Notes: a model not told the origin generated them from the sequence alone. A DNA stretch of 57,483 nucleotides from an uncultured Pseudomonadales bacterium (GCA_964513845.1 CAZENT010000006.1:1-57483); one strand, 5' to 3'; positions 6,136 through 30,859 are shown, counted from the stretch's first letter. Made by a program: numbers and translations.

Positions 6136-6227
6136 GGTATCAACCCCATAATTTGATTTCGGCACGCCTATGAGATAAAATACGGCCAGTACTTTGACAA
6201 ATTCAAAATAAAAAAAGGAGGGATATC

Positions 6228-7697
6228 ATGTCCCAAAACAAACTTCGTTTTTGGAGCATGGTACTTTTCCTGCTCCTTTGTTGTCTTTTTTCATTCACTT
6301 CAACGGTTTTAGCTGATGACGGCACTAACCCCACACAATGTCAGTTTCAGCCTTCCCCTAGTGATCGCAGTTCCACCATGGACTCCATTTTTTTGATTGG
6401 AGCAGGTGGCGAAAATCTAACTTGGGACAATAGCTATCTTGGCCTGCATCGCTGGACGTTCCAACAATGGCCAGGTGTCGACTATACTGTTCCAACCACG
6501 ATTGCGTTCACCTCAGGTGGTACGATTTCTTGGCTTGGAATCGATGGTGCGGGTGGAGGCTACTCCATCATCATCGACGGAGCAAATGAGTGCCAAGGCT
6601 GGCGACAGTTCATTGGCCATCTCGCTTATGATCCCAGTTCTCGCTATGTCATTGGCCAAGAAATTGGACCCAGTGAAATAGTCGGTGAGCCTGGTTGTTC
6701 CGGCTTTGAAGCATACTGCACTCCCAACGGAGGCTCGATTCCTCCACACAATCACACCACCCTAGGTTACCAAAGTAATGTTTTTAGTTTTTCCGATGGT
6801 ACCCAAGCCGTAGGTGTTCGTGGATACTGGTGGATTCATCCGGCCAGAGTCGAAGGGACAGCCGTCAGTTCTCCTGGCACAGAGAAGCAAATTAGCTTCG
6901 ATGCATCCCTGGAGTACTCGGCAGAGTTCACAATTCCCGAAGTCAGTCAAAGCATAAATCCTGATTTTCTGGATAATCTCTTGATTGGCCTCACCCCTTA
7001 CAAAACTCACCTCAAAGTCGCGGCTTCCTTGTTGGGGCTTGCCTTCATTGGCTTGTTCTTCATCTCCAAAGACTTTCGAGGGCTGACCATCGCCGGACTT
7101 GTAATCGCGGTGATCTTGGCTGGAGGTATTTTCTATCTCCGCCAATCTATCGCCAAGTCCCCCGTGTTTTCTCCTCCTCGTGAGGCTATTTTTGTGGCTG
7201 AGGTTCCGGAAAAAACCGTCACTTTTGACATCAGTGAAACCACTTCACTTTCCTCCTCGGCCAACACCGTAGACGCAGACTGTCAGCTTCCAGTTTCGTA
7301 CCCCGATACAGTTTTGCGTTACTGTGATTTGATTGAGAAGTATGCCGCCGAGCAAGGTGTTGATCCTCAATTAATTGCGGCCGTTATGGTTCAGGAGTCC
7401 CATGGTAACCCCGATGCTTACAGCAGCGCGGGTGCCGTTGGTCTTCTGCAAGTAATGCCGCACGATGGTCTTGCTGCCAATTTTATGTGCGCCAATGGCC
7501 CCTGCTTCGCCAATCGCCCCTCTATGGACGAGCTTTACGAAGAGGAGTTTAACGTCAGCTACGGTACTCGTATGCTGGCTGGTTTGATCAACAAGTACGA
7601 CGGCTCGGAACGTGAAGCTTTGTTTCACTATGGTCCGGCCGGGGTTGGCTATTACTATGCCGACATCGTATTGGCCATCAAGGCCAAGAATCAATAA
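6228..7697 (+). CDS. Secreted/membrane protein: M23-like peptidase domain, two TMs, lytic transglycosylase (SLT) domain
   Basis: Signal peptide; H..GVD, GHL and PHNH (HxH) M23-like motifs; C-terminal LIAAVMVQESHGNPDAYSSAGAVGLLQVMP SLT motif; SD AAGGAGG. Confidence 0.75.
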   Translation: MSQNKLRFWSMVLFLLLCCLFSFTSTVLADDGTNPTQCQFQPSPSDRSSTMDSIFLIGAGGENLTWDNSYLGLHRWTFQQWPGVDYTVPTTIAFTSGGTISWLGIDGAGGGYSIIIDGANECQGWRQFIGHLAYDPSSRYVIGQEIGPSEIVGEPGCSGFEAYCTPNGGSIPPHNHTTLGYQSNVFSFSDGTQAVGVRGYWWIHPARVEGTAVSSPGTEKQISFDASLEYSAEFTIPEVSQSINPDFLDNLLIGLTPYKTHLKVAASLLGLAFIGLFFISKDFRGLTIAGLVIAVILAGGIFYLRQSIAKSPVFSPPREAIFVAEVPEKTVTFDISETTSLSSSANTVDADCQLPVSYPDTVLRYCDLIEKYAAEQGVDPQLIAAVMVQESHGNPDAYSSAGAVGLLQVMPHDGLAANFMCANGPCFANRPSMDELYEEEFNVSYGTRMLAGLINKYDGSEREALFHYGPAGVGYYYADIVLAIKAKNQ

Positions 7698-15995: not shown

Positions 15996-16351
15996 CCCCA
16001 AACCCCAAGCCCGCTCGAAAAAGCGGGTTTTTCATATATACTCGGCATTTTTTCCAAAAAAAATGCCCCCAATTAAGGGGGCTCTGGAATGTGGGGTTTT
16101 ACCCACATCATCAATTCGGGCGAAGAGACGCCCGAAGCAAAAGCAAAAGAAAACTTCGGTCCCAATTCATTGGGCAAATCCTTTCATATTTTCAAGCCGG
16201 TAGGGCTGCATCCTACCCAACTTTCATACATTTTGCTTTTTTTATCTTCTCTCTTGCGCGCCACGCGCATGTGGGACAAAGGAGAAGGACGCTAACGTTC
16301 TACCTTTCTGAACGGTATAGGTAGTATATCAATTCATTATAGGTTTGTCAA

Positions 16352-16669
16352 CTACTGCCAGACCACCCATGTTTTACCGATAAAAATTTTCTTGAATGGC
16401 TGACAGCTATAAAATGTCACTACCATCACCGTTCTCGGTTTCAGTTTCACGATTGTCTGACCAGAAAATATTTGACCCACAACCTCTGGTTCGTGGCCCA
16501 AATATTCCACCCTAGTCTTTCCAAACATAGAATTCGGCACAACAAACAGGCCTTTTTTGGGTCGAAAAAATTTGTTAACAGGTACCGAGTCAACCAAGGC
16601 CATCAAATATTTTTCCAGCGGCATATCACTATCAATTTTGACAATCTCAAAATTTAAGGGTTCTGACAT
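16352..16669 (-). CDS. Small hypothetical protein
   Basis: Start placed at ATG 16669 behind SD GGAGG (track ORF 16352-16720). Confidence 0.6.
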   Translation of the reverse strand: MSEPLNFEIVKIDSDMPLEKYLMALVDSVPVNKFFRPKKGLFVVPNSMFGKTRVEYLGHEPEVVGQIFSGQTIVKLKPRTVMVVTFYSCQPFKKIFIGKTWVVWQ

Positions 16670-16795
16670 CAATCCTCCACCGTCTAAAGATGTCTTACAG
16701 TGCCTGCTATTATCTCCCAACCCCCTCTCAAAGTCAACCTATAACAACCATCCCCTTGACGTTAGTAAAACTTTCTGTTAATTTCTATATCAGAC

Positions 16796-17044
16796 ATGGA
16801 CAACCAAGACCAAACCCCAATTGTAAAATCAACCAAGAAAGATCTTGATCTAAACAATCTCCCTGACCTTTTGACCGTTTCCGAAGTAGCCACGATTCTC
16901 CGTGTTTCCACCCTTACCATCAAGCGTTGGGGCAAACGCGGCAAACTTCCGGCTATTCGTATCAACTCTCGAGGTGATCGCAGATACAAAAAAGAGTCAG
17001 TCCTCTGGATGCTCGGCATCAATCCCACTCAATCCAACTCCTAA
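16796..17044 (+). CDS. Excisionase-like/MerR-like HTH (HTH_17) DNA-binding protein
   Basis: LLTVSEVATILRVSTLTIKRWGKRGKLPAIRINSRGDRRY. Confidence 0.85.
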   Translation: MDNQDQTPIVKSTKKDLDLNNLPDLLTVSEVATILRVSTLTIKRWGKRGKLPAIRINSRGDRRYKKESVLWMLGINPTQSNS

Positions 17045-17177
17045 GGGTACAAAAAAGACCCCGATTCCTCGAAGCCTTTCCTTGTCATCCCCGACCTGAT
17101 CGGGGATCTATATCAATAATACAAATTCGTCATTTCGAGTTTCGTACTCGAACCGTGGCAATCTCACATTTATTTCC

Positions 17178-17241
17178 TTTGATCTGCCCACGCATAGATC
17201 TTACCCTGTCCAAGTAATAAGTTCTATATGGGCAGGTCAAA
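17178..17241. repeat. 64-bp terminal hairpin B (second copy 19593-19656)
   Basis: TTTGATCTGCCCA...TGGGCAGGTCAAA long imperfect hairpin; the two copies are nearly identical and each sits at the distal end of a cassette array. Confidence 0.85.
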
Positions 17242-17329
17242 AGAAATGACCTGTATTCTTTGGATACCCAAAACGGAATGATAAAAGAAATCTTTGGGAG
17301 GGTGTAGACACACCCTCCCAAAACAAGAA

Positions 17330-17890
17330 CTACCGCATCCGACAACTCACTACGGCATCTTCGAAAGATACGAAAGGCTCTTCGTAGTGAGAAGCATGGC
17401 GGCGAAGTGCCGTCTGCGCTTCTTCCCACGATGGTGCTGATCCCTTGCGGACAAAAACATAGGTTTCCCAATCGGGATTTCCATTTGTCCACAGCGCCAT
17501 TACCACAACATTCTCACCTTCGGGGAGATGGTACACTCCATCATCCCCCTGGCAACGGGGTGGATAGGTGAAACTTTCTTCACCTTCCAAATACTTGATT
17601 TTCGTTAATGGCCAGCCCAGCGTTCGGGCAAGCCGCCGAACGGGATTTGTGTCGTTTTCAATTAACGGCATCCGCAACACCTTATTCGGAGTGATGCGAT
17701 AAGCGCGCCCGGCCACAATTGGCCATACCCCCATGACCATTCCCGTGGAGTTGTACTCCACAATGGTGCCCTTGGTTGAAAATTCAGGATCAGGATACAC
17801 TATCATCCTTGTCCCTGATAAGCCCCGACGAATTACTTTTGATCCGTCAGACACCAATTCATCAAAGGTTTTGTCCAAGAAAATAGCCAT
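17330..17890 (-). CDS. Cassette 1 hypothetical protein (186 aa)
   Basis: ORF with SD AAGGAGG inside the leader hairpin; stop abuts the trailer. Confidence 0.75.
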   Translation of the reverse strand: MAIFLDKTFDELVSDGSKVIRRGLSGTRMIVYPDPEFSTKGTIVEYNSTGMVMGVWPIVAGRAYRITPNKVLRMPLIENDTNPVRRLARTLGWPLTKIKYLEGEESFTYPPRCQGDDGVYHLPEGENVVVMALWTNGNPDWETYVFVRKGSAPSWEEAQTALRRHASHYEEPFVSFEDAVVSCRMR

Positions 17891-18190
17891 TTTTGTCCTC
17901 CTTATGGACAGCTCCGCCGTTAAACGACGGAGAAGAAGAAAATAAGATTCTGCTCAAGCTTGCGCCAAAGCAGTTTTGGGCATACCAGCCCGTTTTGAGT
18001 ATCCAAACTCATATATTGTCATTGCGATCCGCCTTTGGTGGAGAAGCAATCCCCGACATGCGGAGGTTACCTCGACCTTTCGGCTTCACAATGGACAAAT
18101 ATATATTTTAAATCTGGATACCCAAAACAGAATGATAAAGAAATGATGTGGGGGGGGGGTAAAAAAACGCCCCCCCCCAAAAAAAATCTC

Positions 18191-18343
18191 TCACAAGTTC
18201 TTTTTTCTCTTGATAACAATCAAGAGAAATGCAAAAAAGAAACCTGCAACGATCAATCCGAGCTTTACGAGCTCGGATTCAACGATAAACGTGCCCAACA
18301 AACAGGCACATCCTACCACAAATACAATTTTAAACCAGATCAT
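18191..18343 (-). CDS. Cassette 2 small two-TM protein (50 aa)
   Basis: MIWFKIVFVVGCACLLGTFIVESELVKLGLIVAGFFFAFLLIVIKRKKNL; ATG 18343 at the same distance from the leader SD as other cassettes. Confidence 0.65.
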   Translation of the reverse strand: MIWFKIVFVVGCACLLGTFIVESELVKLGLIVAGFFFAFLLIVIKRKKNL

Positions 18344-18569
18344 TATTGCCCTCCTTTGGGGCCACTCCGCCGTGAATGCGACGGAGATTAAATCAACACT
18401 CTGCTCCAGCAATTGCCTTTGGCAGTTTGGGGCATATCAGCCCGTTTTGAGTATCCAAATTATTAAATTTCAAAGTTCAAACTTTCTTCGAATCGCACCA
18501 CCGCCAACAAATTTCACCTCACCAAAAAAATCGCCAAACTAGCGACAAAAAATATAGGGAAATGGAAAT

Positions 18570-18699
18570 GAATTACTGTTTGGACAGGTAATTCGGTAAC
18601 ACCTCTTGGAAGTGGTGCGACTCGAATTTGAAAGTTCTTGGCAATCGATTGATTGTCAACTATAGCCGATAGTATATCACAATATTATAGGTTTGTCAA
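18570..18699 (-). promoter_or_regulatory. Array header A: promoter TTGACA-17-TATACT, 53-bp conserved leader and GAATTAC hairpin (second copy 22807-22976)
   Basis: 18607-18659 versus 22884-22936 differ at 4 of 53 positions; hairpin GAATTAC...TTGGACAG-GTAATTC present in both. Confidence 0.75.
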
Positions 18700-18710
18700 C
18701 TTGAGGGATT

Positions 18711-19331
18711 TTATCCAATCTCAACCAACTTGACGTTTTGGACAATGACGCTTTTTACAGTCAACCAGCTTACGTTTTTGTGCATTTTTGGGCTAGGCTG
18801 ATCCTCCGCGTCATCAAAATACACCAACGATTTTAAAACATGAAGCAAATTGTATTCCTGATCACTGTATTTTTTCTTCATAAATCCAAAAATATCAGGC
18901 AAAGAAAACTCCTCCATAATGAAAAAAAGGTCAATGAAGTCTTTCTTAGATCCTCTTGCTGAAATAGTAATTAATTTTGTACAAGCAACATCCTGAATCG
19001 AAGATATTTTTATCCCATCCAGTATCTGTGGTTCTTCAAGCAATCTATACGGGTAATAGAGAAACTGTAATTTCACATTGTCCACAAAACAATTGAGAGT
19101 TCCAGAGTCCATTGACGCTTCTGTCAGATGAAGTTCTTTTTTCAATATTTGTAGTAAGTTTTCCGGTTCAAACTCTTCCTGGGTAAAAAAATCTAAATCT
19201 ACTGATTCACGATGACCCAAATGAAGCGCCAAGGCCGTTCCTCCAGACAAGTAAAAATTTCCAGGCAAACCAATCTTTGTCAGTTTGTCAAATAGAGCTT
19301 TTGTTCCCGGTGCAAGTGTTTCTGTGTGCAT
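18711..19331 (-). CDS. AbiEii/AbiGii-family nucleotidyltransferase toxin
   Basis: FYLSGGTALALHLGHRESVDLDFF and KKDFIDLFFI motifs. Confidence 0.9.
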   Translation of the reverse strand: MHTETLAPGTKALFDKLTKIGLPGNFYLSGGTALALHLGHRESVDLDFFTQEEFEPENLLQILKKELHLTEASMDSGTLNCFVDNVKLQFLYYPYRLLEEPQILDGIKISSIQDVACTKLITISARGSKKDFIDLFFIMEEFSLPDIFGFMKKKYSDQEYNLLHVLKSLVYFDDAEDQPSPKMHKNVSWLTVKSVIVQNVKLVEIG

Positions 19332-19332
19332 A

Positions 19333-19554
19333 TTAAAAGTATAACCGCCAAAAATTACGCGATTTCGGACTCATTTTTTTTGATAAATTTTTTTTCAGTT
19401 CCTGTTTAGATACTTTTCCGGTAAGCCACTTCACAGCCCTTGCATTTCCCTTTTCCAAAATAGTATTGGAAATATAATTTTTATGTTTTGCCATACTCAA
19501 ATCTCTCAAATCATCGCCCCAAAAATACTTAGAGATAAACCTAGGTATTATCAT
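19333..19554 (-). CDS. Small cognate antitoxin (DUF6922-like)
   Basis: YFWGDD...YISNTILEKG...VKWL...SRNFWRLYF; 1 bp upstream of the AbiEii gene. Confidence 0.75.
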   Translation of the reverse strand: MIIPRFISKYFWGDDLRDLSMAKHKNYISNTILEKGNARAVKWLTGKVSKQELKKNLSKKMSPKSRNFWRLYF

Positions 19555-19773
19555 TACCTCTATTTTACCTCAAAACAAGACTAACAGCTTCCTTTGATCT
19601 GCCCACGCATAGACCTTACCCTGTCCAAGTAATAAGTTCTATATGGGCAGGTCAAAAGAAACGACCTGTTTTTTATGGATACCCAAAACGGAATGATAAA
19701 TATGTAGGGAGAGAGGAAGCTAGACAGGCAACCTCTCTCCCACAAGACAATCAGGGGGGGGTGATGGAAAAAT

Positions 19774-20085
19774 CTACCACGAGCCTCTTGATGTGCCGTG
19801 TGCCGGCACCGGCTCGGTGTGAGCCAGCACCGCACAACACTTTTTGCTGGGGACCTCAATGGTCGTCCAGCTCTGACTCTCAATCATTCCTTCCGGAACG
19901 ACCGAGTCCCACGAGTATCGGACGATAACTTGCCCGTCCGATACGGAAACACAGTGGAAATCTCGGGAAACTTCCCATTTCCCGAATTTTCTGGCGAGAT
20001 CAATCTCGCCCATCGCCACCATCTCCGCCATTTTGACGGCGGTGGCACCAAATACGAACTCGATCATTTCAACAAATTCATTCAT
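19774..20085 (-). CDS. Cassette 3 hypothetical protein (103 aa)
   Basis: ATG directly after the leader SD hairpin. Confidence 0.65.
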   Translation of the reverse strand: MNEFVEMIEFVFGATAVKMAEMVAMGEIDLARKFGKWEVSRDFHCVSVSDGQVIVRYSWDSVVPEGMIESQSWTTIEVPSKKCCAVLAHTEPVPAHGTSRGSW

Positions 20086-20308
20086 CTTTGCCCTCCTTTA
20101 GGGCCACTCCGCCGTGAATGCGACGGAGAAATAAATCAAACTTCTGCCTCAGGCAATTGCCTTAGCAGGTAATTAACACGGGTGATAAGTATCAACCCGT
20201 TTTGAGTATCCAAACTCATATATATTGTTAATCTGGATACCCAAAACGGAATGATAAAAAAATGTAGGGAGAGAGGAAGCCAGACAGGCAACCTCTCTCC
20301 CACAAGAC

Positions 20309-20542
20309 TTACTTCCAGGTCCACCCGGGCTCAATGGCCCTGATGGCCTGGATGGCCTCATCTTCAATTTCCTTCTTGGTTTCCCAAGAAGGAGACGCAC
20401 CACGCATTCTCACTATGGTGTGAGTTGTGTCTGGACCATCGTGGATAATTGTGTGAAAATACGATAAGCCCAATTCTTGGGCCTTGTTGACTATTTGTTC
20501 GATGGGGTGATTTTCCCCACACCTTGCTGTAAAAATAATCAC
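20309..20542 (-). CDS. Cassette 4 hypothetical protein (77 aa)
   Basis: GTG 20542 after AAAGGAGG; stop abuts the trailer GTCTTGTG. Confidence 0.65.
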   Translation of the reverse strand: MIIFTARCGENHPIEQIVNKAQELGLSYFHTIIHDGPDTTHTIVRMRGASPSWETKKEIEDEAIQAIRAIEPGWTWK

Positions 20543-20750
20543 TGTGTCCTCCTTTGGACAGCTCCGCCGTGGAACGACGGAGAAAAAAGAAAAAGATTCT
20601 GCCTCGGCAATTGCCAAAGCAGTTTTGGGCATACCAGCCCGTTTTGAGTATCCAAACTCATATATATTTTTAATCTGGATACCCAAAACGGAATGATAAA
20701 AAATGTGAGGAGGGGGAAATGTCAAGACAGCCAATCCCCCTCCCACAAGA

Positions 20751-21227
20751 CTAAGAGTACTTTATTTTTGCCTCTTCCATCCTTCGGAAGAGTTCCCTAA
20801 CCGCATCAGCCTGGTTCGGGTTTAACCCAATAAATACCTGCTCTTTTAATATTTCAAAAAAGAACAAGCTTTCTTTTTTTGTTGGCCATCCATTCTCGCC
20901 GATATCGACGAGTAGTTCCAACACTGAGACAACGGGGATCGTTGTCATGAATGGATTAATTAGGCATCCACGCTCTAGATCAAAGCCGTTGAGCCCTAGA
21001 TATTTCCACCCATCTGCAACTTTCCAAAGTTTTTCGCCCAGAATTTTCTCTGGGTTGTCCCTATGCCAATAAAAAGTTGGCAACTCAGGATCCATTGGGT
21101 CTGTGAAGACCCCAAGAGCATACTCGCCCTTATATTGGGCGATGCGGAACCTAGGAAAAACACTTTCCCTCAGTTCTGGGGGCAAACAATCAAATACACC
21201 CCTTTTCAAAAATTTTATTTTCATCAT
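20751..21227 (-). CDS. Cassette 5 hypothetical protein (158 aa)
   Basis: ATG after the leader SD; stop abuts the trailer. Confidence 0.75.
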   Translation of the reverse strand: MMKIKFLKRGVFDCLPPELRESVFPRFRIAQYKGEYALGVFTDPMDPELPTFYWHRDNPEKILGEKLWKVADGWKYLGLNGFDLERGCLINPFMTTIPVVSVLELLVDIGENGWPTKKESLFFFEILKEQVFIGLNPNQADAVRELFRRMEEAKIKYS

Positions 21228-21553
21228 TGCCCTCCTTTAGGGCCACTCCGCCGTGAAATCGGACGGAGAAAAAGATAAAACTTCTGCCTCAGGCAATTGC
21301 CTTTGGCAGTTTTGGGCATACCAGCCCGTTTTGAGTATCCAAACTCATATATATTTTTAATCTGGATACCCAAAACGGAATGATAAAAAATGTTGGAAGG
21401 GGGAAATGACAAGACTGCCAATCCCCCTTCCACAAGACTGATTGTTATTTTCCACTCATTTGAATGAAAAAATTACAGGTTATCAACCTAACTTTTTTAA
21501 AGAGAAGTCACCTCTCTAGCGCCAATCCTCTTTTTACCCGCCTTGCGGCGAGT

Positions 21554-22294
21554 TTAATCGAAAAGATTGGCTTCCTCCTCAAGCCGTGCTTTCACGGACT
21601 TGAGGTTGGACAAATCATACCGGCATTCACTTTCAGCCGGTAAAGACGACTGGTCAACAATCGACCCGTCCATAATACTCACCTCGGGGGCTTCCGCCTC
21701 CGGGATGACGAACATGTCCTGCCGGTGTTCATCCGGCATGTCGGACGAGTAAACCTCCTCGTCCAAATAGGCCGCCGCTTCCCAGTAGGACAAGCCTACT
21801 TGGAAAGCGCTCAGCCGATCGCTTTGTCCCTCGAGGACATAAGCGAAGTGATTTTTGAACTCCACGAGGAGCTTGTGCCCCTCGCGTGCTGCACTTACGG
21901 CCCCCCAATTCGACCGGCAGCCAACTCGCTGCTTTTCGATGGTCGCTCCCGCCCTGAAGATCAGGACGGACCAGGGGGTCTTGACAGGGCGCAGTGCCCC
22001 GGTTCCTTGCATCCAGGGGAAACCCTGAATGCCGATTATCCAGGTGCGCTCAGCCAAGGACGGGTGCACGCGTTCGTACACCTCGACAAACCCTTCGGAG
22101 GACTGGGCCCGGTAGCCCTTCAGGGGGATGATGATGTCATACCCTCTATTGAACAGCCTTTCACCAAAATGGGCCAGAGGGCCCAGGTCTGCGCCGAAGC
22201 GCAGAACGACACCCTGTCCAGCGACTCTCGTCGCCGAAACAGAGTATACCCGCAGTTCGCGGGTGAATGTGTCGATCAAAAGATGCTTTGCCAT
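21554..22294 (-). CDS. Cassette 6 hypothetical protein (246 aa, visibly GC-rich)
   Basis: ATG after the leader SD; acidic C-terminus; own small terminator hairpin near 21535-21553. Confidence 0.75.
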   Translation of the reverse strand: MAKHLLIDTFTRELRVYSVSATRVAGQGVVLRFGADLGPLAHFGERLFNRGYDIIIPLKGYRAQSSEGFVEVYERVHPSLAERTWIIGIQGFPWMQGTGALRPVKTPWSVLIFRAGATIEKQRVGCRSNWGAVSAAREGHKLLVEFKNHFAYVLEGQSDRLSAFQVGLSYWEAAAYLDEEVYSSDMPDEHRQDMFVIPEAEAPEVSIMDGSIVDQSSLPAESECRYDLSNLKSVKARLEEEANLFD

Positions 22295-22429
22295 TTTAAT
22301 TGCCCTCCTTTAGGGCCACTCCGCCGTGAATGCGACGGAGAGATAGAAATCAAACTCCTGCCTCGAGCAAACGCCTTTGGCAGGGAAACTAACACGGGTG
22401 ATACATATCAACCCGTTTTGAGTATCCAG

Positions 22430-22790
22430 AATAACCTCTTCCTCATAAGCATTCCCGAGTAATCTCGGTCTCCGTTAACAGCAGTAAACCATGTTTACCT
22501 TGCGGATTTTACGAGGAAGATTATTAATGTTAAGGTCCCAGCATTCTTCGGGTCGCGCCACTACCTTCCTCGGAAAACCGAGAAAGCTAGTGTGTCTTGT
22601 AGCTTTTATCCCCGATTTACTCGTCGTATCCCCGTCAACCGAGGGCGATCTATAAAGAAGTAGATAAAAGTACTGGTTCTGCTCATCCTCACTACCGAAG
22701 CTATCTCGGCTAGAAGACTCACAGAGTTAATTAAACGTCTTATGCCGAAGCAGCGTTTAACTCCAGACTGCACACAGGAAACATATGAAA
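22430..22790 (-). ncRNA. Putative large structured non-coding RNA between header A and cassette 6
   Basis: No ORF in the track; many nested hairpins including UUCG- and GCAA-capped stems; lies downstream of the 22948-22976 promoter. Confidence 0.4.
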
Positions 22791-23142
22791 ATTGGACAAG
22801 TTTTGTGAATTACTTTTTGGACAGGTAATTCAAGTACACCTATGGAAATTTTTAACGCATTCGCGTTTGGACAGTTTCCTTATTGGCAGTGGTGCGACTC
22901 GAATTTGAATGTTCTTGGCAATCGTCTGATTGTCAATGATAAGCAACAGTATAACACAATGTTATGGGTTTGTCAAGTAGTGTTTACAACTTGGCTCTGG
23001 GTTCGTGTTACCTAAATGTGCTTATTACAGGTATATATTACCACATCTTATAGTATTTGTCAATCCCTATTAACATCCACAAACACATCGCTATCCGTCA
23101 ACATCCCTTGACACTCCTCTAGTTTCCCTATACCATCTATAT

Positions 23143-23949
23143 ATGCCCACTCCAAACAATTTACAAAACCTCGGTCTTTCCACAGATCAAACCGCCATCT
23201 ACCTCACCCTTCTCAACTCAGGACCACAGTCCGCCATCTCCCTAGCCAAGCTTTCCGGCATCAAACGCACCTACATCTACCATCTCTGTAAAGAGCTCGA
23301 AAAAGAAGGACACATCAAGCTCACCCAGAAAGGTCGCACTACCTACTTCTCCGCTCAATCACCAGATCTTCTCCTTGCCAAAGCCCAAGAGAAAAAAGCT
23401 CAAGCCGAAACCGCTCTGCTCACACTCCAGTCAATTCTCCCAGAGCTCCAGTCCAAGTACCGCCTCACCGACATCAAGCCTGTTGTGAGTTACTTCGAAG
23501 GTCTTGAGGGTATCAAAAAGATGTACCAAGACATCATCAAAACTGGCCAAGATGATCTTCTTTTTCGCTCAATTCACGATGAAAGCAATCCTCTGGCAGC
23601 CACGGTCCTCTACAAACACATGGAGGAGCGCACCAAAGCCGGTATCCGCACCAAGGCCATAACCCCTTTTGTCGAGGTAGGTATTCAAAACTACCTCCAT
23701 CACGATAAAGAGCACCTCTTTGAACGCCATTTCACCCAAAACCCTAAATATTTGTTCCCCTGTCAGATCATTGTTTACGGTACCAAAGTGGCTATTACCG
23801 ATTTCCAAACACTCATTACCACCACACTCGACAACCTACTCATTAGCCAAACATTTAGCCAGCTCTTTGACATTCTCTGGGAAGCCACTCAAAACGAACA
23901 CGACGACCTCATCAGAAAAATTAGCTCAAACCCTCCAAAGACTAATTAA
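23143..23949 (+). CDS. TrmB-family transcriptional regulator
   Basis: N-terminal wHTH (LGLSTDQTAIYLTLL...LAKLSGIKRTYIY), VSYFEGLEGIK, C-terminal PLD-like domain; promoter TTGACA-17-TACCAT 6 nt before ATG. Confidence 0.9.
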   Translation: MPTPNNLQNLGLSTDQTAIYLTLLNSGPQSAISLAKLSGIKRTYIYHLCKELEKEGHIKLTQKGRTTYFSAQSPDLLLAKAQEKKAQAETALLTLQSILPELQSKYRLTDIKPVVSYFEGLEGIKKMYQDIIKTGQDDLLFRSIHDESNPLAATVLYKHMEERTKAGIRTKAITPFVEVGIQNYLHHDKEHLFERHFTQNPKYLFPCQIIVYGTKVAITDFQTLITTTLDNLLISQTFSQLFDILWEATQNEHDDLIRKISSNPPKTN

Positions 23950-26510
23950 AAATAGCCCTCGTATTTTGGATCTTTTGCTTGTCGCTTATGCTTTTTCGTG
24001 CTCATTTTAAACTTCATTAAATACTCTCCAAACTTTTCGGCAATCTGCTCGAAGTTCTCCATTGTTGCTTCACTAAACGAACCCTCATTGTGACCTCCCT
24101 CCGACTTTTCTGCCAAACTTAAGACTCTACCCACCCGAAGGGTTTGATACTCACCAGATACAAAAAACGACTCTCCGGTGCCCAGATCGAGTGATACCTT
24201 AGGTTTTTCCGCCAAACCACGTTCCTTACTGTACGCACTCCTATCAAAAGCCACCCTCACCTCCTGACCACCCCCCAACGGAGGAACAACTTTAAAATTA
24301 ATTCTCGCTTCCGCCGCACTTCCATCTCCGTTTACACAAGCCTTTGGTCGAATAGAAACTACCACTTTTGATTCAGTTTTTTTGTCTTTAAAAATTCTAA
24401 TTACCATCGCCTTTTCGTCTTTGATATTTTCATCTTCAATCATTCCGGCTTGAAAACCGACATCCATTAGCTCAAACTGATCCTCTTCTCGCAAGCCTTC
24501 CAAAACCCCCAAAGCGTATGTTACGGCATCCATAGATTCCAACAACTCATCCAGCTTCACTTCTCCACCAGACCCCTCATCAATCACTATAGCCGCTTTA
24601 AAGTACTCACAACATTTTCTGATTAGCGCCTCATGTGCCTCCGCAAAAAAAGTGTCTCCAGTTCCCAAATCAACACCATCAAACGACTTTCTCCATTCAT
24701 AAGCCTTGTTTGTTATCTGAAAGAAATGTTTTAGCACTTTCTCTTTCTGTTCGCGGGAGGAGTTTGCAGACTCAAAATATTTTAGTATATCTTCTCCTGT
24801 TCCTCCATAATCAGCCGCCAAAAATACTTTCAACCCCAGTTCGCCAAAATTTCTAGCTATCTCTTTCAGTTGTGTTTTTTTGACGTCGTCTCCTTGCTCA
24901 TAACTCAAAACAAACCACCCTTGTTCATATAGTTCCAATGAATTCAGGCTAATATCTGTTTCGGTATAGATCTGATCAAATAGTTTTCCATAGCTCGATA
25001 AAAACACCTCAGTCATTAGCTCTCTCGACTGTCTTTCTTGAGCAGTTTCGTCAGCCTTAGGCAAGAAAATATCTTTCGAAGAAATACTGCGCACTACTGC
25101 CTTAACCCGTTCTTGATCTGTCTCTAAATTCAAATTAAAAGCACCCAACAACTTTCCTCCGTCTCCAAAAACTCCTATTCGTCCATGATTATCAATACGC
25201 TTCACGTATGAGTTACCTGCTCTAAATAGCTTGACCAAAAACTCAGGATCATCCTCTTTTATTAGTTCGTAGATCTTATCAAAATAGCTAACTCCATCTT
25301 CACTTGTGATAGCAATTTTTTCCATCTCCAAATCATATAATATTCCGGCCGACATTCGTCTGGATAGAATGTCTTCACTTTTTAAGTTATTCAGCAATAT
25401 CGGCAAAGAGTTCGCTAGTCCAAGATAGTCAAATAGCTTAACGTATTCCCCCAGTGATCCTTCTGGCCAGGTTTTTAGCTGATCTCCTGCAATGGCCGCG
25501 AGTTCAATTTTCTCACCATCGGTCCAGTCATTTACATGCATGACGGCACCAATCAAAGCATAGTGGACAAATCTAAATGGATTATCATCCCATCTCAAAC
25601 TATTTTCGTCAAAATAGTAATAACTATTTACCTCATCTTCACTTTCCTGTATCTCTTCGTGTGGTTCTTTGTCAATAACTGAATCGTCATCAGTATCAGG
25701 ATCAGCAATCGAACCATCGGGGTTGTATTGAAGATCAAAAAACTTATCATCTTCTTTTCTATAGCGACATACTTCATTCACTTCTTTAATTCGTTCAATT
25801 CTTTCCCGACAAAACCCCTCCATCAGTTCCTTTGCTTTCTTCGCACCCTCGACTCTACCGATACTTATGAGAGAAATTAATATCTCATTGGTGAACGGAT
25901 TTTCTTCAAAATATGAATTATATGTTTCTTCTGCGTATTCAGAAAGGATTTCTATCACCGCGCCTCTTTCCTCCTTTTTGTCCCTGTAATATTTCTCCAT
26001 TCTATTTAGAGTAGGCAATAGCGCTTCGTTTACCATATATTTAAACGAAATATCACCATCATCATCATGATAATAACTATTACTCTTTTCCCTTCTAAGT
26101 TCTTCCTCATCACAAACATGAGTAGCTTCTTTAAGCATATCTATCCATTCACCAGGACTTATGTTGTCACTTGCTTCCAGTGTTTCTGTTTTTTTCAAGA
26201 ATTTATCTACCGCACCACGAGAAGCTTTGTCCCATTTAATATAATCTTCTCTTTGATGGGTTTTATATCCCCCATAAGGATAATCCTCAAAGTCAAACGA
26301 TCTCCATCCATTATCCGCCCTATACAAACTTCTCCATTCAGTATTGACCTGTTCACGCCATTCTTCAGATTTTCTATGCCGCTCATCAATTTCTCTCTGT
26401 ACCTCCACAGAAAGGGCATCTTGTTCTTCATTAGCTTCACCGAAGATATCATCGCCTTTAAAATCAACTGGCATGTATTCATCATAAACTATCCAGGAAT
26501 TTCTAGCCAC
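23946..26510 (-). CDS. Large acidic hypothetical protein (854 aa)
   Basis: Long uninterrupted ORF; no recognisable domain. Confidence 0.8.
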   Translation of the reverse strand: MARNSWIVYDEYMPVDFKGDDIFGEANEEQDALSVEVQREIDERHRKSEEWREQVNTEWRSLYRADNGWRSFDFEDYPYGGYKTHQREDYIKWDKASRGAVDKFLKKTETLEASDNISPGEWIDMLKEATHVCDEEELRREKSNSYYHDDDGDISFKYMVNEALLPTLNRMEKYYRDKKEERGAVIEILSEYAEETYNSYFEENPFTNEILISLISIGRVEGAKKAKELMEGFCRERIERIKEVNEVCRYRKEDDKFFDLQYNPDGSIADPDTDDDSVIDKEPHEEIQESEDEVNSYYYFDENSLRWDDNPFRFVHYALIGAVMHVNDWTDGEKIELAAIAGDQLKTWPEGSLGEYVKLFDYLGLANSLPILLNNLKSEDILSRRMSAGILYDLEMEKIAITSEDGVSYFDKIYELIKEDDPEFLVKLFRAGNSYVKRIDNHGRIGVFGDGGKLLGAFNLNLETDQERVKAVVRSISSKDIFLPKADETAQERQSRELMTEVFLSSYGKLFDQIYTETDISLNSLELYEQGWFVLSYEQGDDVKKTQLKEIARNFGELGLKVFLAADYGGTGEDILKYFESANSSREQKEKVLKHFFQITNKAYEWRKSFDGVDLGTGDTFFAEAHEALIRKCCEYFKAAIVIDEGSGGEVKLDELLESMDAVTYALGVLEGLREEDQFELMDVGFQAGMIEDENIKDEKAMVIRIFKDKKTESKVVVSIRPKACVNGDGSAAEARINFKVVPPLGGGQEVRVAFDRSAYSKERGLAEKPKVSLDLGTGESFFVSGEYQTLRVGRVLSLAEKSEGGHNEGSFSEATMENFEQIAEKFGEYLMKFKMSTKKHKRQAKDPKYEGYF

Positions 26511-29222: not shown

Positions 29223-30859
29223 ATAATGCTATTATATTCGTGCAGCACGATTAAGCAATCCAGACCTCCAATCTTCTCAATCTCGATCAGCATAAAACTA
29301 TCTTCCAAAATCGTGCCTAGACTCCCAAGCCATTATCACTCATCTTTCATCTCTGCCAAGTAGGTATTTTAATGTGTTTGGTGCTTAAGATCAAGCAATT
29401 TTGCCTGTATCAAAGCATAAAAATATCAAAATTTGGCCCAAAAAACCCTCAGTGAAAACTTCAAAGCTAAATTTTTAAGACATTTTTTAAGGTTTTGTTA
29501 AAAAACATCATTTATATAAGATATATATACGTATCCTATATCATCAATCGTCCAATATTTTCGATAAAATAGTTATTTAGACATTCATATCTCATACATA
29601 GTCGAATCAAAAGATAAATTTATGAATACATTATTTAATCAATAATTGTACCCAAATACGGAAATTAGATAAATAGTAAGGAAATAATTGATATGACTTA
29701 TATGTATAGCTATCACTCCTCTTATAACTAATAAATAGACCGTCACATTTATAGCAAAAATATCAATATTTAACCCCATATTACAATTTTGCTTGATCTA
29801 GTTTGTTCAACCGAAAAAATAAAAATACCTGACATTTTTGCATTATCTCTTTAATGTGAATATTTCATAAAATATGCTTCAAATATATTTTTAGGAATAT
29901 TAATATGTTGTCTACACCAAACATGTCAGAAATAGACAATAAACAAAATCAACACACATCAAACAACCAGATAAAAATACTTCGATGCCCTATTGTGACA
30001 ACACCATCTCTATATATAAGAAATCATAATGATGAAAATACTAAAAAAAGCAGTACAAATACAGATATTCAAAAATCGAAGATATATAAGAAACCGGAGT
30101 CAAATATATAGAATATATCTTGTAATATTTCACACACATATATGCCTAAAGAATATATATTTCAACACGGTATATGTCAAACGATCAAAAATTGATAGGC
30201 AAAAATATTTAGAATAATCATAAAATGCTATGTGTACAAGCACCTACTTGTAATATATGTTACATAACAGAAAACAATTACATACAAATTAATGAGTGGG
30301 GCAAAAAATATATCGAGAAATACATAATATTTACATACCCATATAGGTAACTTAAGAATAGACACATACCCCACCCCCGGTATTATCAAAAAAATCTTAA
30401 CAAGAAAATACAGTCTGGGTACCCATACCCCCAGACAAAAAATATAGCGCCGAAAATCGAAATGCAAAATAGTTAGGGGGTATGGGGTGTGTTCGTGAAA
30501 ACTAGAGCTAGCTTTGCATCTCGATAAATATCATATATTGATCTCAACACATATCTTATTCCCCATTCAGCTATCTCATACCAATAATTCACAAACGAGC
30601 AACTCCAATTCTTTTCTTAGAATCCGGAAATTATATTGATCTACGACACCCCAATGAATATATATGAACCAAATATTTCAAATTTATTTTTACAAATTTC
30701 ATCCCCATACTCAATTACTATGTACAACTGTCGATATAACTATCTAACCCATATATCTTTTTGATGTATATGAAATTTATGCCTAATTGCCATTTTAGCA
30801 ATTAAATCATCACACTGACAGGGTAAATAAAAAAGACCGATTCACTAGCTAATTATTAT

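Follow-up and report, generated by a model that had tools for sequence, protein, structure and literature searches.

What do the conserved hairpins at the two ends of a gene-cassette array do? The question is raised by a 57,483-nucleotide (nt) stretch of DNA deposited under an uncultured Pseudomonadales bacterium (GCA_964513845.1 CAZENT010000006.1:1-57483), here called the window. It carries two cassette arrays, and each has a hairpin called header A at one end and a hairpin called hairpin B at the other, which present the same short motif in inverted orientation. The initial annotation suggested a second-level recognition site, for example for an HUH enzyme, by which a whole array could be moved or replicated. 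The analysis reported here gives good support to a different answer, namely that the hairpins are RNA elements at both ends of the array transcript. We put a probability of about 45% on the full reading, in which they are 5′ and 3′ boundary elements of the array operon with complementary loops that probably pair. The features on which the argument rests are the following (positions counted from the first letter of the window).

17051..17079, minus strand: intrinsic terminator (stem + U6), closing the unit after the first copy of hairpin B
17178..17241, minus strand: hairpin B, copy 1 (B1), last conserved element of array 1 in transcript sense, -30.7 kcal/mol
17259..18459, minus strand: array 1, two cassettes, each with a pair of inverted 25-nt arms (core CCGTTTTGRGTATCC)
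18442..18664, minus strand: mini-leader of array 1, which keeps an operator-like hairpin P0, helix P1 (18608-18626 with 18487-18505), header A and a terminator-like hairpin (18524-18546)
18570..18594, minus strand: header A of array 1, within the shortened mini-leader, RNA GAAUUAC-CUGUCCAAACA-GUAAUUC
18671-18699, minus strand: twin promoter of array 1, score 11/12
19593..19656, minus strand: hairpin B, copy 2 (B2), 3′ end of array 2, 96% identical to copy 1
19674..22435, minus strand: array 2, four cassettes with the same arms
22413..22941, minus strand: structured array 2 leader RNA, between the predicted transcription start and the first cassette arm
22789..22800, minus strand: box 3, CUUGUCCAAUUU (CCUGUCCA in relatives), single-stranded, 3′ of header A
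22807..22831, minus strand: header A of array 2, which is box 2 of the leader, loop CUGUCCAAAAA
22865..22876, minus strand: box 1, AACUGUCCAAAC, unpaired, between short helix P2 and a variable hairpin
22948..22976, minus strand: promoter of array 2, TTGACA-17-TATACT, score 11/12

The sequence contains hairpin B at 17178-17241 and 19593-19656, header A (GAATTAC..TTGGACAG GTAATTC) at 18570-18594 and 22807-22831, and extra TTGGACA boxes at 22792-22798 and 22867-22873, all as initially annotated. The motif CCTGTCCAA occurs exactly four times in the 57.5 kb, against 0.56 copies expected. Two copies are on the plus strand at the hairpin B apices (17205 and 19620) and two on the minus strand at the header A apices (18580 and 22817), one of each per array, and the description of each array as bounded by inverted copies of a loop-displayed motif is therefore correct. 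The shorter TGTCCAA is present 17 times (9.3 expected), and 10 of the 17 copies lie within 17207-22873.

The motif had been defined as a loop together with its TTAC/GTAA stem, and as displayed on the plus strand at hairpin B; both points are corrected here. The loop core CCTGTCCA is conserved, but the stem is replaceable: a hairpin B variant from a groundwater metagenome has the apical stem CTTGAT/ATCAAG instead of TTAC/GTAA, and its loop is still CCTGTCCA. The motif does sit on the plus strand at hairpin B, but both hairpins fold on the minus strand. For hairpin B, the minus and plus folding energies were -30.7 and -28.5 kcal/mol in the window, -31.0 and -20.3 kcal/mol in the related contig L147, and -32.3 and -20.3 kcal/mol in the related contig L142. 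Together with the U·G pairs described below, these energies rule out a plus-strand display of the motif at hairpin B.

Hairpin B is embedded in a 112-nt repeat, whose two copies in the window are 96% identical. In an alignment of four sequences its minus-strand fold has 26 pairs with every cell paired, including four compensatory pairs, three invariant U·G pairs and one change from A-U to G·U. Between the window and L142/L147, the stem shows the compensatory replacements CTGCCCA/TGGGCAG to CTACCCA/TGGGTAG and TTTGA/TCAAA to TCTGA/TCAGA, with the loop unchanged. Across four lineages the loop core (CCTGTCCA/UGGACAGG) is constant while every stem segment varies. Compared with shuffled sequence, the fold of hairpin B had z = -6.4, and those of header A had z = -2.1 and -4.1, the latter for the array 1 copy. 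The RNA loop of hairpin B, called the anti-box below, is UUGGACAGG.

Other roles were considered for hairpin B. It is not itself an intrinsic terminator: GGAAAUAAAUG, and not a U run, follows the stem, and a separate terminator lies downstream. A dispersed palindrome of the repetitive extragenic palindrome (REP) type is likewise ruled out, as it was found at array ends only: the window has two copies, L142 and L147 have one apiece, and 17 array-less loci have none. A search of viral contigs with the patterns of hairpin B and the arms returned no matches.

Header A, at the other end, lies within a large leader RNA as one of its internal hairpins; this RNA shows covariation and matches no Rfam family. 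Relatives of the locus were reached through homologues of the trmB-like gene next to the array promoter (35-100% protein identity in the family), and ten contigs were examined. Nine of them share one arrangement upstream of trmB: the promoter is the same, and a long conserved stretch leads from it to the first cassette arm. The tenth (L150) extends just 200 bases beyond trmB on that side. Besides the window, leaders were delimited on the minus strand of L142 (8431-9203), L143 (2339-2977), L147 (9106-9807), L149 (8-692) and L151 (1699-2465). The seven leaders compared are 540-800 nt long and consist of conserved blocks interrupted by hairpins of unrelated sequence. RNAalifold placed 106 pairs in them, 30 with compensatory changes. 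Many of the pairs are G·U in the minus sense and would be A·C mismatches on the opposite strand. The long-range helix P1 has 19 bp (22885-22903 with 22547-22565 in the window) and shows exchanges between A-U and G-C. The window leader folds with z = -5.05, and header A is retained in its minimum free energy and centroid structures. Header A folds in 8/8 leaders (including the mini-leader of array 1), using four different 3′ strands. On the sense strand, three TGTCC boxes were present in each of 7/7 full-length leaders and one in the mini-leader, and GGACAG was found on this strand in 0/8. Box spacing varies by lineage, from 46 to 85 nt between boxes 1 and 2 and from 18 to 28 nt between boxes 2 and 3. 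When the window was compared with Rfam, only four transfer RNAs (tRNAs) reached the gathering score, and nothing credible appeared within 16000-24000 at E values up to 5.

Two of the contigs, L147 and L142, hold complete arrays, and L147 is syntenic with the window (rplJ, rplL, HTH_17, ..., trmB). In both, the last arm is succeeded by hairpin B, at a distance of 58 nt in L147 and of about 270 nt in L142, where REP-like elements lie between. A stem with a U run is located 20-110 nt beyond hairpin B, in the minus sense, in the window, L147 and L142. The boxes at the promoter end and hairpin B at the far end thus recur in relatives, and the motif is neither randomly distributed nor confined to the window. 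This comparison supports the idea, already put forward initially, of a conserved second-level signal, which occupies these two positions also in the homologous arrays of other lineages.

On the minus-strand transcript header A has the loop CCUGUCCAA and hairpin B the complementary loop UUGGACAGG, and both lie between promoter and terminator. Because both hairpins are on one transcript, with header A internal to the leader and hairpin B before the terminator, the loops are complementary and not identical. They are best read as selected to stay so. Both partners are in predicted hairpin loops, with part of the anti-box of L147 in weak U·G pairs. When the hairpin B apex was compared with the whole leader by RNAduplex, header A ranked first as the target in both arrays of the window and in L147, at about -17 kcal/mol, a value that only 0.6-1% of shuffled apices equalled. 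From these results we infer that header A and hairpin B probably base-pair.

Transcription of both regions was detected. Contigs from four metatranscriptomes of two studies fell, within 16000-24000, only on the leader (22399-22905), apart from repeat-element fragments and one 102-nt piece inside the open reading frame (ORF) of a cassette. Two RNA-type libraries yielded contigs over 17065-17249, from hairpin B to the terminator, and none on cassette ORFs.

The transcription unit begins at the strong sigma-70-type promoter beside the divergent trmB-like regulator gene, from which the long structured leader is predicted to be transcribed. The leader exposes CUGUCC(A) three times unpaired, with box 2 as the header A loop, and the cassettes come next. 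Behind the last cassette lies hairpin B (26 bp), whose loop UUGGACAGG is the exact complement of box 2, and the intrinsic terminator is 20-110 nt further on. The most likely mechanism would be loop-loop (kissing) or antisense-type pairing of the 3′ hairpin with the leader box or boxes. Such pairing might occur in cis, within a full-length transcript, or in trans, if leader and 3′ fragment are both stable and meet as separate molecules. The head and the end of the array would thereby be coupled, with possible effects on stability, processing or read-through.

Known systems offer partial parallels. RNAI/RNAII and CopA/CopT are kissing antisense hairpins in plasmid copy-number control. They resemble the present pair in having complementary loops and partly complementary stems (here with the predicted duplex of about -17 kcal/mol), but here the partners are kilobases apart on the same strand and are not overlapping sense and antisense transcripts. 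The hok mRNA is subject to fold-back inhibition. As in hok, complementary sequences are exposed at both transcript ends here. The same likeness holds for icaR of Staphylococcus aureus, where the 5′ and 3′ untranslated regions of one bacterial mRNA base-pair (PMC3868564). In contrast to both, the transcript here is a multi-gene cassette array, 1.4-3.4 kb separate the ends, the 5′ partner is one of three boxes in a leader of 540-800 nt, and the first gene's Shine-Dalgarno sequence is not the target; the pairing here is deduced from sequence analysis.

Several observations limit the case for a pairing of the two ends. For L142, the duplex prediction favours a different site in the leader. The cores of box and anti-box are invariant in every lineage seen, so that there is no covariation between them to score, which neither supports nor contradicts the pairing, and the partners are 1.4-3.4 kb apart in cis. 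RNA complementarity and a DNA inverted repeat look the same at the level of sequence. No terminator follows hairpin B2, which is succeeded by a toxin-antitoxin pair. Finally, the RNA evidence comes from Logan contigs, which are unstranded and of low depth and may contain DNA.

If the pairing is real, this would be a conserved case in which the two ends of a long bacterial operon transcript recognise each other, in Microgenomates, a group in which gene regulation is almost unexplored. The work also singles out a large, abundant, undescribed structured RNA at the head of a strain-variable array that has no integrase or attC, and the hairpin pair is a simple handle for finding and delimiting such arrays and for testing their expression and renewal.

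The alternative that survives best, which we nevertheless regard as rather unlikely, retains both hairpins as RNA elements that do not pair with each other. The leader boxes would bind a protein or aid folding, hairpin B would be a 3′ stabiliser or a site of the ribonuclease III (RNase III) type, and the likeness between hairpin B and header A would be the relic of an ancient inverted duplication. The evidence for the RNA nature of both elements serves this explanation equally. The 26-bp duplex of hairpin B is a classic double-strand RNase substrate, and the arms at cassette junctions and leader helix P1 form similar long duplexes. The related (U/A)GUCU in the loops of cassette 3′ hairpins suggests a loop-reading protein. 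On the other hand, the hairpin B loop core is constant in four lineages, which is not needed for a mere stabiliser or RNase III site, and a protein that binds a motif would not also bind its complement.

A bolder version of the paired-end reading, which we think improbable, takes the leader as the start signal, and hairpin B as the stop signal, of an RNA-based device for read-through in an integrase-free cassette system of candidate-phyla-radiation bacteria. The nascent leader with its three CUGUCC boxes would make RNA polymerase ignore the terminator-like hairpin at each cassette end, and the hairpin B anti-box would pair with the leader and switch the device off just before the final terminator. 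If this were true, arrays of any length and content could be expressed as one unit. RNA-based processive antitermination is represented by put of HK022 and EAR of Bacillus. The likeness lies in a structured leader right after the promoter and upstream of a long operon with terminator-like hairpins; in contrast to put and EAR, the leader here has no sequence or Rfam match and is several times larger. We know of no dedicated stop hairpin in the put and EAR systems.

Very unlikely is an explanation in terms of DNA mobility, in which the hairpins are inverted single-strand or cruciform sites where an HUH enzyme, transposase or recombinase excises, moves or replicates the array. The geometry does resemble an inverted repeat, and several binding sites are also carried by the ends of Tn7 and Mu, which look alike in this respect. 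The window holds two array modules: the duplication that gave the second runs from the -35 box to the base of hairpin B, where homology stops exactly, and in a related strain (run X8) the same flanks enclose only one array. The location of the module relative to backbone genes also differs by lineage, as the window and L147 have it on opposite sides of one backbone gene, and L142, L143 and L149 have it near fusA. Judging from these positions, the block has moved or been rearranged, always together with trmB. However, the comparison with empty sites, which the initial annotation had suggested, does not favour mobility of a hairpin-bounded unit. Seventeen syntenic loci (rplJ, rplL, HTH_17, ..., wecG, mreB) have no trmB, promoter, leader, arms, hairpin B or terminator. 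Since the whole set is lacking there, the variable block is larger than the interval between the hairpins; it includes trmB, promoter and terminator and extends past both hairpins. Header A is set back from the edge of the unit by about 120 nt; outside it are the promoter, P1 and trmB, all of which are duplicated or lost together with the array. IS200/IS605-type ends have both hairpins on the same strand. The present locus shares with them hairpins near both ends of a DNA segment, but it has no tnpA, the shared motif is on opposite strands although both hairpins fold on one, and the hairpins are not at the ends of the variable unit. Neither the window (Pfam, all larger ORFs) nor about 100 kb of homologous loci (Pfam lists for L142-L151) yielded a gene for an HUH, Y1, integrase or transposase protein, and the sole linked protein has a TrmBL2 fold without conserved HKD. 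Contigs of eight DNA runs showed cassette loss and exchange and contained no array-length excision or inversion and no strand-changing joint. An HUH/Y1 enzyme, or a device that moves or replicates the whole array, is thus not supported, with no such gene found in these sequences and both hairpins inside one promoter-to-terminator unit.

Equally improbable are boxes that act as double-stranded DNA operators for the TrmB-like or HTH_17 protein and loop or insulate the array, for which the constant divergent trmB-like gene and the conserved HTH_17 gene flanking hairpin B in the window could be cited, but the three-box spacing varies between lineages, the boxes sit in covarying hairpins and loops that double-stranded binding does not need, hairpin B has an extra C within the site, HTH_17 is equally conserved in the 17 array-less loci, and ATAACA-N2-3-TGTTAT between -35 and -10 is a better candidate operator.

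This palindrome (ATAACA-N3-TGTTAT at 22951-22965 and 18674-18688 in the window) is at the same place in all related promoters, and a second one, TTGACAATC-N4-GATTGCCAA, is located at the predicted transcript start. Both are likely candidate operators, perhaps for the TrmB-like protein. The genes next to the arrays are these.

16796-17044: HTH_17 protein gene, left flank of the arrays, adjoining the hairpin B side
18711-19554, minus strand: DUF6922/AbiEii toxin-antitoxin pair, between the two arrays
23143..23949, plus strand: trmB-like gene, divergent from the array promoter, TrmBL2 fold

The trmB-like gene is the sole protein gene that constantly accompanies the arrays. The structural model of its product (predicted local distance difference test score, pLDDT, 86) matches TrmBL2 over the full length (E 8e-14) and has a PLD-like domain without conserved HKD; this fold and the missing HKD rule it out as a recombinase. 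HTH_17 is ruled out as an array-specific factor, being also present in the 17 array-less loci. It has thousands of close relatives, and those named by source are from Candidatus Collierbacteria, Shapirobacteria and Woesebacteria. All of these named relatives are Microgenomates, and the array host is therefore, by protein similarity, an uncultured Microgenomates bacterium of the candidate phyla radiation. The window (43% G+C) carries nusG, rplK, rplA, rplJ, rplL, mreB, ndk, dprA and the four tRNAs, and is chromosomal because such ribosomal and housekeeping genes and tRNAs are present. The sequencing runs that contain its sequence are wastewater metagenomes. The ribosome-binding site of the DUF6922/AbiEii pair comes directly after hairpin B2 with no intervening terminator, and the strain in run X8 lacks both this pair and the array 1 header.

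The arrays themselves are defined by their arms. The 15-nt arm core CCGTTTTGRGTATCC is present in 12 copies (0.13 expected), all in the arrays, with one copy per orientation in each of the six cassettes. In transcript sense, a cassette consists of an arm, a 5′ untranslated region with hairpins, a ribosome-binding site, the ORF, a G+C-rich hairpin and a U-rich arm. The six ORFs, with up to 60% G+C, are unrelated to one another and to cassette ORFs of other loci and gave no Pfam or PADLOC match, and exact look-ups of two of the proteins found no match. The arms (TTTGGATACTCAAAACGGG... / ...CCGTTTTGGGTATCCA) are kept across lineages; the untranslated regions and ORFs are not. Cassette content varies between strains, and contigs of runs X4, X5, X8, X11 and X13 show cassette loss or exchange, for example a clean loss of 21341-22432. 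A cassette from a related strain (L145, 94-1038, minus strand) encodes a split Csx3-AAA protein (PADLOC E 2e-26, 4e-68), so cassettes can carry defence-associated genes. Scans of genome contigs with the 15-nt arm core gave single chance matches only, in unrelated phyla, and the matches to a gapped arm pattern in metagenomes belonged to an unrelated repeat family (GGGTATCCC units, CACAGTG ends) and not to these arrays.

As in integrons, a fixed promoter platform heads unrelated, mostly promoterless genes in one orientation, the cassettes are strain-variable, and a toxin-antitoxin pair is found in the array. In contrast to integrons, there is no intI, each cassette has an inverted 25-nt arm pair, and the platform carries a large RNA and a TrmB-like regulator. 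No tyrosine recombinase or integron integrase gene was found in the window or related loci, and attC is ruled out by a pattern scan, in which 0/4 cassette junctions had the RYYYAAC...GTTRRRY pair. A literature search on cassette arrays or large RNAs in candidate-phyla-radiation bacteria gave nothing pertinent. The surrounding system, with its TrmB-linked promoter, large Rfam-less leader RNA and arm-bounded, strain-variable, integrase-free cassettes, looks undescribed.

Some smaller features of the cassettes were also observed. The arm tip (GTATCCAAA) resembles the box (CTGTCCAAA). A box lies directly upstream of the Shine-Dalgarno sequence in 2/6 cassettes (20548-20562 and 17897-17912, minus strand; GCUGUCCAAAGGAGG, GCUGUCCAUAAGGAGG), and the other 4/6 have GUGGCCCUAAAGGAGG instead. 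G+C-rich hairpins follow cassette ORFs at 17292-17323, 19707-19741, 20267-20301, 20710-20745 and 21397-21433 in the window and at 6190-6230, 6775-6800 and 8030-8065 in L147. These are preceded by AGUCUU(G/A)U and have (U/A)GUCU, which is near the leader box UGUCC, in the loop in 8/9 cases. Their U run begins 4-8 nt past the stem, and they are therefore not canonical terminators.

Outside the arrays, a third copy of the strong promoter (TTGACA-17-TATACT) is located in the unit 16060-16351 on the minus strand, with about 260 nt that contain no convincing ORF and a terminator at 16082-16065; this unit had no Rfam match and no homologue among the fetched loci. In the 1.6-kb wecG-mreB gap, about 540 nt (29294-29824) have 67% identity to the corresponding gap of L152-L157, for which no gene has been called; this stretch could be a further non-coding element or a gene that was missed. 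Near hairpin B and within one cassette junction there are insertions of small palindromic elements with the layout GTCATT-stem-loop-stem-AATC (17076-17125, 17128-17168 and 18020-18098 in the window; 5630-5860 in L142). The 48-nt copy at 17076-17125 is missing in runs X4, X5 and X8, and many contigs break at these elements, which are therefore dispersed repeats.

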